Assembly (NCBI GenBank): GCA_034670305.1
Contig: JAXMNT010000011.1
Coordinates: 1 to 64,000, forward strand
DNA from: Deltaproteobacteria bacterium
GTDB taxonomy: Bacteria > Myxococcota_A > Polyangia > Polyangiales > Houyiibacteriaceae
Direction: 5' to 3'
DNA: 64,000 nucleotides
The notes under the pieces were generated by a model. That model worked only from the letters and a program-made list of their open reading frames with translations. It did no database searches and was not told where the DNA came from. Shown one piece after another: positions 26,808-64,000 of the stretch (positions are counted from its first letter, which is position 1; each line of letters starts with the position of its first letter). A program made the position numbers and the translations under genes.

Positions 26808-26954
26808 CGGCGGCCGTGGAGATGCGCCCACCCGTGCCGGTGGCAGTGGAAGATGGCCGTGGCGCGGGAGATGCGCGACCCGTGCCCGTGCCCGTGCCCG
26901 TGCCCGTGCCCGTGGTTCAGTCGTTGGGTCGGCGACTCAGGTGGTCTGTGGTTC

Positions 26955-27070
26955 TGCGACGGAACTCCCCCTCCCTCCTCTGAACTCCTCCGGAACTCTC
27001 CCGAAATTGAACGGGCGCTGGCGAGCGACGCGATGGACGGCAGGGGTGACCACGCGTGCGGCTGCCGGGT
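26955..27070 (+). repeat. Dispersed AACTC-rich repeat, copy B
   Basis: Matches copy A; flanked by (GCCCGT)n at 26878-26913 and (GCAGAG)n at 27092-27211. Confidence 0.85.
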
Positions 27071-27091
27071 TTTCGGGGTCGGCGGCAGAAT

Positions 27092-27211
27092 GCAGAGGCA
27101 GAGGCAGCGGCAGCGGCAGCGGCAGAGTCAGAGTCAGAGGCAGAGGCAGAGGCAGAGGCAGAGGCAGAGGCAGAGGCAGAGTCAGAGTCAGAGGCAGCTA
27201 CCGCTACAGCC
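27092..27211. repeat. Hexamer array (GCAGAG/TCAGAG/GCAGCG)n
   Basis: Visible periodic tract. Confidence 0.9.
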
Positions 27212-27306
27212 CATGCTCTCCTTCGGAGTCGCACGGTCTCAGCCTCTTCCTTCGGAACTCGGCTCCTTCATCCTTCGGATTCGGAGTGGCTTGGGTGGGC
27301 TTGCTG

Positions 27307-27438
27307 GCTCGGCGGGATTTCGATGGTGGCGGAGTGCTCACCCGCGTCAAGGGTGCCTTCGGCCCCAGCCTTCGGAAGGCTGGCTGCGCCCTTGACCCGG
27401 GCTCCGCTCTCCACCGGGGGCGCTTCGCGCCGCCGAGC
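27307..27438. promoter_or_regulatory. Conserved multi-stem element upstream of four-helix-bundle gene 1
   Basis: GTCAAGGGTGC/GCGCCCTTGAC core stem, nested outer stems and TTC-loop hairpins; same topology as 29267-29421. Confidence 0.7.
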
Positions 27439-27469
27439 AATGTCGCTCTTCGGGGCATTGGAGGCTCTC

Positions 27470-27857
27470 ATGATTGTTCTCGAATCTTCTTTGGTTCTCG
27501 TCGAGTCGTTGGTGGGTGTGCTGGCGGATGTTTCTCGCCGGGACCGTTCGTTGGGGGATCAGATGCGGCGGGCAGCTCAGTCCGTCGTGCTGAACTGCGC
27601 GGAAGCGAAGCACGCCCGGGGGAAGCGGAGCGTCGATCGGTTCGAGTCGACACGGTGCAGCCTCGCGAAGCGAGCCAGCCGTGTCACCGGGACGGCGTTT
27701 GGGGGCTGTGCCCCCAAGAAGCATCGCGTACGGGGAAGCGAGCGAGCTGAAGGCGGCGCTTCGATTGGTTCGGGTGTTTGGGTACGCGGAGGTCAGCGAG
27801 GAGTTGGTGCAGCGCTGCGATGAGGTCTGCGCGATGCTGTATCGGCTCGGTCGTTGA
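27470..27857 (+). pseudogene. Four-helix-bundle protein (23S-IVP/TIGR02436-like) interrupted by a 76-bp insertion
   Basis: LGDQMRRAAQSVVLNCAE...DRF, then in another frame [14 protein letters not shown]...[10 protein letters not shown]; removing 27644-27719 restores a 103-aa ORF colinear with 29458-29769; GGAGG RBS. Confidence 0.8.
27644..27719. mobile_element. 76-bp two-hairpin micro-insertion (REP/MITE-like)
   Basis: GACACGG..CTCGC-GAA-GCGAG..CCGTGTC and TTGGGGGC-TGT-GCCCCCAA; absent from the paralog; boundaries uncertain by about 3 nt. Confidence 0.65.
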
Positions 27858-27892
27858 GAGCGAGGGCCGGCGGCGCGCCTGACGCCGTCGCC

Positions 27893-28060
27893 GGCTCGGC
27901 TTCGGCTTCGGCGTCGGCTTCGGCGTCGGCGTCGGCTTCGGCGTCGGCGTCGGCTTCGGCTTCGGCTGCGTCGGCTTCGGCGTCGGCTTCGGCTTCGGCT
28001 TTGGCTTCGGCTTCGGCCTCGACGTCGGCCTCGGCGTCGGCCGAGGGCGAGGGCGAGGCT
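27893..28060. repeat. Hexamer array (TCGGCT/TCGGCG)n
   Basis: Visible, downstream of four-helix-bundle gene 1. Confidence 0.9.
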
Positions 28061-28148
28061 TCCGGCGTCGCCACCGGCGACGCCATCGCGGCCGGCGCAG
28101 CCGGGCGCGCTTGACGTCTGTGACGGCAGGCGGCAGGGATCGATCACC

Positions 28149-29063
28149 ATGTTGCTCGACTCTCTGCCGAAGTCCGTGTCCATCTACGAAGTGTCGCCGC
28201 GCGACGGTCTCCAGAACGAGGCGGGGCAGGTGGCGACGCATGCGAAGGTGCGGCTCATCGAGGCGCTCGCGGATGCGGGGCTCAAGCGCATCGAGGCGAC
28301 GAGTTTCGTCTCGCCCAAGTGGGTGCCGCAGATGGCGGACGGCGACCAGGTTTGCCAGATGCTCGACCGCACCGAAGGGGTGACGTACTCGGCGCTCGTG
28401 CCGAACGCGCGCGGGCTCGAGCGGGCCATCGAGGCGGGCGTGGACGAGGTCGCGGTGTTCTTGAGCGCGAGCGAGACGCACAACCGCAAGAACGTGAACA
28501 AGACGATCGCGGAGACGCTGAAGGCGTTCGAGCCGGTGGTCGCGCCGGCGTCGAAGACGATGCCGGTGCGTGGGTACGTGTCGACGATGTGGGGCTGTCC
28601 GTACGAGGGCGACGTGGACCCGAAGCGCGGGCTCGAGATCGCGCAGACGTTGCTCGCGGCGGGCTGCTACCAGGTGAGCCTGGGCGACACGATCGGCGTG
28701 GGCACGCCGCTGCAGACGCGACGCATCCTGGAGCTGTTCTTGAAAGAGATCCCGGCGGAGAAGATCGCACTGCACCTGCACGACACGCGGGGCACGGCGC
28801 TGGCGAACGTGCTGGTCGGACTCGACATGGGCATCACGACCTACGACGCGTCGGTGGCCGGACTCGGCGGCTGTCCGTACGCGCCGGGCGCGGCGGGCAA
28901 CCTGGCGACGGAGGACCTCGTGTACACGCTCGACGGCATGGGCATCGAGACGGGGGTGGACTTGGCGAAGCTGTGGCAGGCGGGGCAGGTGGCGGAGGCG
29001 GTGTGCGGGCGGGAGTTGCCGGGCAAGGTGCACCGGGCGGGCGTGCGAAGTTTGGCGGGGTAG
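28149..29063 (+). CDS. hmgL: Hydroxymethylglutaryl-CoA lyase
   Basis: [51 protein letters not shown]. Confidence 0.95.
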
Positions 29064-29093: not shown

Positions 29094-29228
29094 CCTGAAG
29101 CCGAAGCTGAAGCCGAATCCGAAGCCGAAGCCGAAGCCGACGCCGAAGCCGAAGCCGACGCCGAAGCCGACGCCGAATCCGAAGCCGGATCCGAATCCGA
29201 ATCCGAAGCCGACGCCGAAGCCGACGCC
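29094..29228. repeat. Hexamer array (GCCGAA/GCCGAC/TCCGAA)n
   Basis: Visible; inverted relative to 27893-28060. Confidence 0.9.
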
Positions 29229-29421: not shown

Positions 29422-29457
29422 GAGTTCACGCTCGGCGTACACAACGGTAGGTTCTCG

Positions 29458-29769
29458 ATGCTGGTATTCGACAAGTCGCTTCTTCTTCTCTCGCTTCTGG
29501 TGAGCGAGGTTCTGCCTCGCATTCGCGAGGCTTCACTGAAGTCGCAGCTGCGGCGCGCTGCGCAGGCAGTTCCCTTGCTCATTGCGGAGTCTCGGAGTGC
29601 GCGGGGGGCGAGGAACCCTGACGGGTTCTCGCGCGCACTTGGCGAAGCCCGTGAAGTGAAGGCGGCTTTGCAGGTCGCGGGGGTGATGGGGTACGTGCAA
29701 GCTGGCGAGGACATGTACGACTTGGCGGACCACGTCTGCGCGATGCTGTTCAAGCTGAGTCGAGGGTAG
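29458..29769 (+). CDS. Four-helix-bundle protein (23S-IVP/TIGR02436-like), 103 aa
   Basis: [44 protein letters not shown]. Confidence 0.85.
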
Positions 29770-63582: not shown

Positions 63583-64000
63583 GGGCGGACGCCGGAGGGC
63601 ATGGATGTCCCGCATCCTCAGCGCCCCGCCAGATCCCATTCGACCGCGGCTCGCAATCTGCGAGGGTCGCATCCACCGATGCGGGGGCTTGTTTGCTGGA
63701 TAGGGCGGGCGGGTTCAGGCGTGGTACGGGGGCGCGCCCGGTTGAGAAGGAGCGGCACGGATGCGGGGCTCGTTGCAATGCAGCATGCTGCTGCACCGCT
63801 TTGAACTGCCGTGTTCGAACGAGTCGCCGGAGGCCGTGAGGACTGCGCGGCTCCTACGTCCGAGCGGGACCGTACGCAGCCGGCTCCGGGCCGTGAAGCG
63901 CAGCGCCCGGCTGGCCCGGCGCAGCTGGAAAGTGGCTGCGCGGGATCCGCTCAAGGCTGCCGTGTTGGTGTTCACGAAGCTGGCTTAGACCTGTGTCTCG

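Follow-up and report, generated by a model that had tools for sequence, protein, structure and literature searches.

A dispersed two-hairpin repeat at the break of a PF05635 gene in a Sandaracinus-like member of Myxococcota

On contig JAXMNT010000011.1 of the Deltaproteobacteria bacterium assembly GCA_034670305.1, a gene for a small four-helix-bundle protein is broken in two by 76 nt of almost fully structured DNA, and the question raised by this locus is what these 76 nt are and how they came to be there. The window analysed is the whole stretch from position 1 to 64,000 of the forward strand (64,000 nt), and its host, as judged from an HMG-CoA lyase whose best match is that of a Sandaracinus sp. 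metagenome-assembled genome (83% at the amino acid level), is a Sandaracinus-like member of Myxococcota. An earlier note on this DNA had suggested two possibilities: a recent, clean insertion resembling a repetitive extragenic palindrome (REP), of the kind mobilised by HUH enzymes or REP-associated tyrosine transposases (RAYTs), or a switch element that is excised or bypassed. We consider it highly probable that a dispersed repeat has inserted here and broken the gene, and hold with good confidence that the two statements, insertion and no switch, are true together.

The interrupted gene (27470-27857, plus strand) belongs to PF05635 (23S_rRNA_IVP, the four-helix bundle of the 23S rRNA intervening sequence (IVS) type) and lies in two pieces (table 1). 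The N-terminal half covers positions 4-61 of the profile (29.5 bits) and the C-terminal half, up to 27854, positions 63-105 (21.8 bits); each alone is below the cut-off of 33.8 bits, while both together cover the profile. An intact paralogue in the same window scores 42.5 bits, above the cut-off. BLASTP against this protein matched the two halves to residues 25-59 and 60-104 with no gap, placing the break between residues 59 and 60, which are adjacent there. The TTC codon (Phe) ends at 27643 and an AGC codon (Ser) begins at 27720, and the 76 nt in between (27644-27719) shift the C-terminal half to the +1 frame relative to the N-terminal half. Straight read-through is out of register and meets a stop at 27821-27823. 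Both halves are stop-free, and removal of exactly 76 nt restores ...DRF-SIAYG... Sequence, coordinates, BLASTP and fold therefore all agree with the earlier description of a two-hairpin 76-nt segment that causes a +1 frameshift between stop-free halves and is missing from the paralogue.

Members of PF05635 are numerous in this genome, with 48 matches, 39 of them above the cut-off (47-48 copies); of 30 relatives (0-31 copies), 21 carry the family in multiple copies, and none has as many as the present genome. The 13 closest paralogues (80-87% nucleotide identity) are all uninterrupted at the insertion site, which reads TTC TCC/TCG AT(C/T) in every one (12 TCC, one TCG and no AGC), as against TTC-insert-AGC ATC in the split gene. 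Separate searches with the left and right flanks found five empty paralogous sites that match the studied copy, of the form GTTC-TCC-ATT/C-GC. At the seven closest HMG-CoA lyase loci no four-helix-bundle gene stands beside the lyase, so there is no orthologous empty site for comparison.

The insert proved to be one member of a large family. BLAST of the 76-mer against its own genome (7.93 Mb in 105 contigs, 96% complete) gave dozens of matches with 86-95% identity over positions 4-76, and three rounds of iterated nhmmer (85, 115 and 115 matches at E ≤ 1e-3) converged on a 72-nt model. A covariance model scores the core of the studied copy at 102.5 bits. Near full length was reached by 78 of the 115 matches, which fall into subfamilies A (29), B (29) and C (12) with eight others; the studied copy joins the 5′ arm of subfamily C to the inner hairpin of subfamily A. 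The matches form 98 loci, 13 of which are tandem arrays of two to four copies with a period of approximately 76-78 nt. Copies stand at several contig ends because, as expected, the repeat breaks assemblies. The family is predominantly extragenic: flanks at 94 loci were coding-like on neither side in 74 cases, on one side in 20 and on both in none, by a crude measure based on GC content at third codon positions (GC3) under which half of random genomic windows score as coding-like. Orientation showed no bias with respect to neighbouring genes (upstream, 40 same and 39 opposite). No copy was found in 40 relatives by BLAST (E ≤ 1e-5), nor by covariance model in 60 same-family genomes of other genera, with only 77 candidates scored per genome. 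We conclude that this is a dispersed REP-like family, ordinary in kind and new as a family.

Since the element often lies inside other repeated sequences, the genome supplies its own filled and empty controls. When left and right flanks were searched separately, paralogous empty sites were found for 25 of the 78 near-full copies, which proves insertion in these cases. The REP-like insertion proposed previously is thus borne out by the 115 family matches together with the filled and empty paralogous sites, and the 76-mer, whose possible uniqueness had been set against that proposal, is not unique. In subfamilies A and B, insertion lengthens cccgATATcgaac by 77-78 nt to cccgATAT[72-nt core + A/AA]ATATcgaac; ATAT occurs once in empty sites and twice in filled ones, so that either ATAT is duplicated or an element ending in ATAT inserts after ATAT. 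Subfamily C copies lie in the loops of a second palindromic repeat and follow no tidy rule (gcgcgaATTaggg versus gcgcgAGA[core]AGAAaggg). More generally, ATAT forms the last four nucleotides of the 5′ flank in 34 of 77 copies, and in 36 of 77 there is TAT or ATA on the 5′ side together with ATAT or AATA on the 3′ side. The A+T fraction of the flanks is 0.79, compared with 0.319 genome-wide. Copies lacking a 5′ ATAT follow CGAA, GTGA or GAGA, the studied copy follows CGAG, and the 3′ tails are A-rich and variable in length (AAATAT, AAAGAA, CAAAA, AGAAA).

The repeat has also entered another PF05635 subfamily, where it adds exactly 78 nt at an ATAT site near profile position 86. This insert amounts to 26 stop-free codons and keeps the frame in at least three copies (C3:235462, C32:46357 and C43:128); the same site also occurs empty (6-8 copies) and with two tandem copies of the repeat. 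The start of contig C77 at profile position 62, considered as a second insertion at the site studied here, turned out to be only a contig break in a different subfamily.

For the studied copy, the TTC TCC/TCG AT of all 13 paralogues, together with a paralogue-like metagenome contig that aligned to the locus as skipping 78 nt with TC in between, leads to an event in which 78 nt (27644-27721) were probably gained and two (TC) lost, a net change of +76. The present Ser codon AGC is then probably a by-product composed partly of element bases, the last two tail bases having replaced the TC of TCC. The insertion proposed in the earlier note therefore stands, while its cleanness does not, as the paralogues imply 78 nt in and 2 nt out. 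Missing from the empty-site paralogues are the GAG junction bases, which occupy the place taken by ATAT, GAGA, TGA or GAA in other copies. No terminal inverted repeat or target duplication is present in the studied copy, in keeping with the original description. Logan contigs from four of four metagenome runs (one study) bridge the left junction (27643/27644) over 283-284 nt with no mismatches. The sole contig that skips the insert differs from the locus at 13 of 159 nt, and is therefore a paralogue. No identical empty allele was seen in the contigs of the four runs, although contigs cannot reveal rare excised molecules; positions 27734-27755 are uncovered in three of the four, which is evidence neither way, and in RNA runs only 5-7% of words were present. 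Most likely, to judge from its sequence, the split gene is a pseudogene and a casualty of mobile DNA, and we call it recent because both halves remain stop-free. The insertion also yields a merely predicted GTG-started open reading frame (ORF) of 58 aa (window 27681-27857), which starts inside the repeat and continues in frame into the C-terminal half.

Table 1. Coordinates of the split PF05635 gene, its insert and the intact paralogue within the window.
Feature	Position	Strand	Evidence
N-terminal half of PF05635 gene, ends ...SVDRF	27470..27643	+	PF05635 E 9.4e-7
Junction bases GAG, 5′ side of repeat core	27644..27646	+	alignment of family copies with flanks
72-nt core of dispersed repeat (TCGAC...CCCCCAAG)	27647..27718	+	nhmmer E 8.3e-19, model positions 1-72
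Hairpin 1	27649..27685	+	outer stem GACACGG/CCGTGTC around inner CTCGC-GAA-GCGAG; fold and compensatory changes
Hairpin 2, TTTGGGGGC-TGT-GCCCCCAAG	27698..27718	+	98.9% of cells paired
A-rich 3′ tail bases AAG of insertion	27719..27721	+	paralogue sites; contig alignment
C-terminal half of PF05635 gene, ...LGR then stop codon	27720..27857	+	PF05635 E 2.2e-4
Intact paralogue (uninterrupted reference)	29452..29769	+	PF05635 match, ORF list

The structure of the repeat offers further insight into what kind of element it is. Hairpin 1, a 37-nt imperfect palindrome with GCGAAGC in its inner stem, begins 2 nt from the 5′ end, and hairpin 2, nearly invariant across the family, closes the 3′ end of the core. 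As single-stranded DNA the 76-mer folds at −21.9 kcal/mol, compared with −14.6 ± 2.3 for 200 shuffles (z −3.16; one of 200 as good); as RNA with its flanks the z-score is −2.2, with six of 200 shuffles matching it. The family structure was set by hand, because the consensus that RNAalifold derived from the nhmmer alignment was poor. Pairing holds in 92.4% of cells of a 21-sequence alignment, whereas sliding the partners lowers it to 35-51%, and one pair of hairpin 1 is changed on both sides in 10 of the 21. The covariation score of 0.089 was reached by none of 500 shuffles, which gave 0.055. Among unique family members, pair 7-33 of hairpin 1 is GC in 49 sequences and CG in 23, pair 5-35 is GT in 32, AT in 30 and GC in eight, and pair 6-34 is CG in 41 and TA in five. 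From these compensatory base changes, the pairing of hairpin 1 is under selection. G-T pairs are frequent, so the given strand of the repeat folds better than its complement, as it does in 49 of 57 unique copies; this asymmetry points to a role as a single strand, whether DNA or RNA. The ends of the element, TCGAC... and ...CCCCCAAG(A) or ...CCCAAG, are not complementary, and thus do not form the terminal inverted repeats of a miniature inverted-repeat transposable element (MITE). A second, commoner palindromic repeat (...agggccgccagtCTCGCGAAGCGAGccaggccc...), present at many loci, contains the 72-nt element's inner hairpin as well; the genome has 152 occurrences of the 13-mer CTCGCGAAGCGAG and 4942 of GCGAAGC.

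Taken together, the element would be a small, non-coding and non-autonomous repeat with a 72-nt core, A/T-rich ends and two unlike hairpins, which multiplied to approximately 115 copies. One of these would have landed in one of about 48 PF05635 genes with a net gain of 76 nt, hence the shifted reading frame. It may travel as single-stranded DNA by means of an HUH/Y1-type enzyme supplied in trans, as REPs and the ends of IS200/IS605 elements do, and would insert next to ATAT-like sites; its 3′ end would recreate such a site, so that arrays can be built. Mobilisation of the HUH type is the best-fitting mechanism because of the two end hairpins, the lack of inverted termini, the preferred tetranucleotide and the strand asymmetry, yet we put it forward tentatively, as a real possibility rather than a conclusion.

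A search for the enzyme yielded 11 diverged Y1 (HUH) transposase genes in the genome, all above the cut-off for PF01797, with REP_Tyr_transpos (REP-associated tyrosine transposase) as their best NCBIfam match (38-41 bits). Beside three of the 11 ORFs the 72-nt repeat lies within approximately 650 nt, on one side only, and no other has it within 1 kb; the rough expectation is about 0.3 such genes, and the repeats cluster anyway. One Y1 gene (C11:63972-64721, minus strand) lies just past the end of the window, its unit spanning window positions ~63765-64000 and beyond. No autonomous parent was evident: pairs of 5′ half and 3′ half within 8 kb were absent apart from one pair 128 nt apart, in an assembly that is 96% complete. 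The Y1 genes with their long inverted repeats are the only enzyme candidates seen, and their link to the 72-nt repeat is unproven.

Several observations weigh against movement by such an enzyme, or blunt the evidence for it. The NCBIfam scores of the Y1 genes are under the 80-bit cut-off, and each gene (~230 aa) is bracketed by inverted repeats of its own, of approximately 200 nt, instead of by the 72-nt repeat. These inverted repeats, which start GTGTAGCCAATAGGG, were found only beside Y1 genes and are not dispersed elsewhere. Neither a Y1 gene nor any other ORF lies between the 5′ and 3′ halves of the element, from which the GT[AG]G tag is also missing. A 4-bp target duplication of the DDE type would explain ATAT on both sides equally well. 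The orientation of copies with respect to GC skew is not significantly biased (36 versus 21 loci at 10 kb and 31 versus 24 at 25 kb; 25 versus 19 at 50 kb, in an assembly of 105 contigs), and the shuffle statistics overstate the significance of covariation because the repeat copies are kin. At the locus itself, the right junction (27719/27720) is bridged by no listed contig, which is again evidence neither way, and the junctions of the studied copy (5′ CGAG and 3′ AAGCAT) depart from the ATAT rule and imply the 2-nt loss. The event was therefore imprecise or the site mutated later, which is untypical of precise HUH strand transfer. Of the HUH/RAYT mobilisation suggested originally, then, the presence of Y1 genes holds up, while their own inverted repeats and the missing tag leave the connection with the repeat unproven.

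Other routes to the same locus have to be weighed. In one of these, a classical transposase would have moved the element as a DDE-type MITE, by cut-and-paste of double-stranded DNA and with duplication of the 4-bp ATAT (or a 2-bp TA/AT). The ATAT-like sequence that flanks 36 of 77 copies on both sides, and the one ATAT of empty sites against the two of filled ones, are what this predicts, but the termini (TCGAC... versus ...CCCAAG) are not inverted repeats, no parent insertion sequence with the element's ends was found, subfamily C and the studied copy lack a duplication, and a strand asymmetry of folding is unexpected for a double-stranded substrate; we regard this route as unlikely. Transcription of the repeat followed by copying back into DNA by a reverse transcriptase is distinctly improbable, even though it would account for the A-rich tails of variable length, for the untidy junction with its loss of 2 nt and for G-T (G-U) pairs that favour one strand. 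The 5′ side is A/T-rich too, a sign of target preference rather than tailing, copies are oriented at random relative to neighbouring genes (the 40 and 39 given above), and no reverse transcriptase is linked to the repeat, although no search for one was made. Improbable as well is that the repeat is an exapted structural element of RNA or DNA (an mRNA stabiliser, a terminator or a protein-binding site) whose presence in this gene is incidental. Hairpin 2 does recur verbatim across phyla and in Asticcacaulis lies 0-20 nt after stop codons and before terminators, and a role as RNA elements has been proposed for REPs that lie downstream of genes (PMC3733652). However, copies in this genome show no orientation bias relative to genes, there is no T-tract terminator or promoter-like site at the insert, and a host function leaves a frame-breaking copy inside a gene unexplained.

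The remaining alternatives concern this locus in particular. In a programmed switch, the 76 nt would be removed (by DNA excision or RNA splicing) or skipped by ribosome bypass, giving conditional expression, and the stop-free halves and the exact restoration of the protein on removal of 76 nt are as such a switch would have them. Programmed bypass of the T4 gene 60 type uses matching take-off and landing codons and a stop after take-off. At this locus, the TTC before the gap is not followed by a stop, and the triplets ahead of 27720, AAG/AGA, offer it no matching landing codon. A length of 76 nt is far below the size of known self-splicing introns; an Rfam search of 27000-28200 had no overlap with 27644-27719 at E ≤ 10 and nothing near a gathering score, and a tRNA scan found no tRNA at the locus. 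There are no flanking repeats for a recombinase, and no identical empty allele appeared in the contigs of the four runs. REPIN (REP doublet) excision has been observed by deep population sequencing in Pseudomonas (PMC3116915), but the element is also present at approximately 98 other, mostly non-coding, loci, and a locus-specific switch is therefore very unlikely. The second suggestion of the earlier note is thus not supported, for want of matching codons, recombination repeats or an intron or ribozyme family, and products lacking the 76-mer did not emerge either: the contigs of all four runs keep the left junction and the only one to skip the insert is a paralogue. That the assembler stitched the repeat into the gene is hardly credible. 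Elsewhere the repeat does interrupt the assembly, several contigs having copies at their ends, and none of the listed contigs covers the right junction; against this, the left junction is reproduced in four of four runs without mismatch, the 72-nt element is shorter than typical reads, and the halves on either side come from a single gene and meet at adjacent residues. A dispersed-repeat insertion thus remains our reading of the locus.

The surroundings of the two four-helix-bundle genes are themselves rich in repeats. Hexamer arrays, (GCAGAG)x17.7, (CGGCTT)x24.7 and (GAAGCC)x22, lie at window positions 27092-27197, 27892-28041 and 29097-29228 (also 26879-26914). The (CGGCTT) and (GAAGCC) arrays are inverted complements, with up to 93% identity over 74 nt, and stand on either side of the HMG-CoA lyase gene (28149-29063); beyond each arm lies one four-helix-bundle gene. 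Elsewhere in the genome, PF05635 genes occur in repeated cassettes of approximately 600 bp (for example C1:298400-299000, C3:235000-235800 and C43:1-400), bounded by ...CTAGCAGG and CCTGCTAG and with complementary hexamer arms (CCCTTGCC... and ...GGCAAGGG); many of these cassettes are decayed mosaics. Just upstream of the split gene, at 27300-27440, is a long imperfect palindrome (gctcggcgg...ccgccgagc). Its summed contig depth is 10-40 times that of its flanks in all four runs, which identifies it as another multi-copy element.

Hairpin 2 reaches well beyond this genome. The exact sequence GTTTGGGGGCNGTGCCCCCAAG has 25 matches in the genomes of other species, compared with none for a reversed control, and an exact-pattern scan found the hairpin with its lead-in, GGGGTTTGGGGGC-NGT-GCCCCCAAG, verbatim in distant phyla. 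Its hosts include Asticcacaulis and other Caulobacteraceae (Caulobacterales), Dehalococcoidia, Leptolyngbya (Cyanobacteria) and Bacillota, and further Planctomycetota, Ktedonobacterales, Chloroflexia (Chloroflexota) and Acidocella. Five such genomes have between one and nine copies each at no more than two mismatches (21 in total; reversed control 0), and compensatory variants occur among them (GGGGCC...GGCCCC). In these phyla hairpin 2 usually stands after another hairpin or directly behind stop codons. The Asticcacaulis copies have the orientation of the gene that they follow, and on a Dehalococcoidia chromosome the hairpin is a module of an intergenic repeat that has nine copies and measures at least 150 nt. 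An exact 36-nt pattern spanning linker and hairpin 2 had no match in 185,579 species genomes, viral contigs contained no hairpin 2, and Rfam at E ≤ 1 gave nothing near a gathering score for 14 hairpin 2 loci of other phyla. The string GGGGGCTGTGCCCCC had no match in the full texts of PMC and bioRxiv, a comparison outside which the REP consensus figures of PMC3733652 fall. The idea that hairpin 2 accompanies PF05635 genes in other phyla was considered and rejected, as none of five such genomes has PF05635.

One conceivable explanation, which we think unlikely, is that the element is modular, a lineage-specific and co-varying hairpin 1 being joined to a constant hairpin 2 that serves as the handle of one widespread mobilising or binding protein. 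If so, tiny hairpin elements for which no enzyme is known would form a class that spans phyla, and the burst of approximately 115 copies seen here would offer the best natural setting for a search for the enzyme of hairpin 2.

How does the repeat compare with known systems? Like REPs, REPINs and bacterial interspersed mosaic elements (BIMEs), it is short, hairpin-forming, high-copy and mostly extragenic, occurs singly or in tandem, nests in other palindromic repeats and has several subfamilies, in a genome with RAYT-like Y1 genes. REPINs are known in tandem clusters and REPs in the DNA flanking RAYT genes (PMC3116915, PMC6006769), and in a canonical REP a guide tetranucleotide, GTAG or GTGG, stands 0-2 nt away on the 5′ side of the hairpin foot (PMC6006769). 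Here, in contrast, neither that tetranucleotide nor its complement is present at either hairpin foot, in the studied copy or the subfamily consensuses; there is no REPtron, and in place of the usually single RAYT there are 11 Y1 genes that are not flanked by the 72-nt repeat. A REPIN is an inverted doublet of one REP in a long hairpin, whereas this element has two different hairpins side by side. REPIN populations are also long-lived and vertically inherited (10.1101/2022.05.22.493013), unlike a repeat that the covariance model did not find in 60 other genomes of the same family. The Y1 genes, as distinct from the 76-nt element, have exactly the layout of TIRtrons/TIRYTs, tyrosine transposase genes that have long terminal inverted repeats (TIRs) on both sides (Di Nocera et al. 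2013, PMC3733652), with an ORF of ~230 aa between inverted repeats of ~200 nt; TIR families are dispersed in some genomes (PMC3733652), whereas here they stand only beside Y1 genes.

Like IS200/IS605, the element has a hairpin near each end, lacks terminal inverted repeats, prefers a certain tetranucleotide beside its left end and favours structure on one strand. It differs in having no cognate TnpA between its ends, no significant replication-strand bias and hairpins that lie 2 nt from the ends, where those of IS608 lie 10-20 nt from them. Recognition of subterminal imperfect palindromes at both ends has been described for the IS608 TnpA (PMC3201880). Rickettsia palindromic elements (RPEs) provide a parallel for a repeat inside protein-coding genes, sometimes in frame, as in the 26-codon inserts above; in-frame RPE insertions (PMC10969869) and intragenic REPs (PMC3733652) are both documented. 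The studied copy, by contrast, breaks the frame with its net 76 nt, and has no sequence relation to RPEs as far as absent database matches tell. Hairpin 2 resembles the CGTC-tagged REP super-family, which has no dedicated transposase and is reported from several phyla (PMC3733652), in its stem of 8-9 bp with A/T pairs first and its short unpaired tail. Its loop is of 3 nt, not 4-5, and it has no CGTC/TGTC/CCTC tag next to the stem, in a comparison made by description only; hairpin 2 may nevertheless belong to a REP family already described.

Set beside these systems, the family is of some value as a clear case of young, lineage-restricted proliferation by a REP-like element without GTAG tag, REP doublet or TIRs, and its many pairs of filled and empty sites within one genome make the rules of insertion directly readable. 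For the split-gene locus itself the finding matters little, as selfish DNA has broken one of about 48 redundant small genes; the in-frame 26-codon inserts and the cross-phylum hairpin 2 could matter more.

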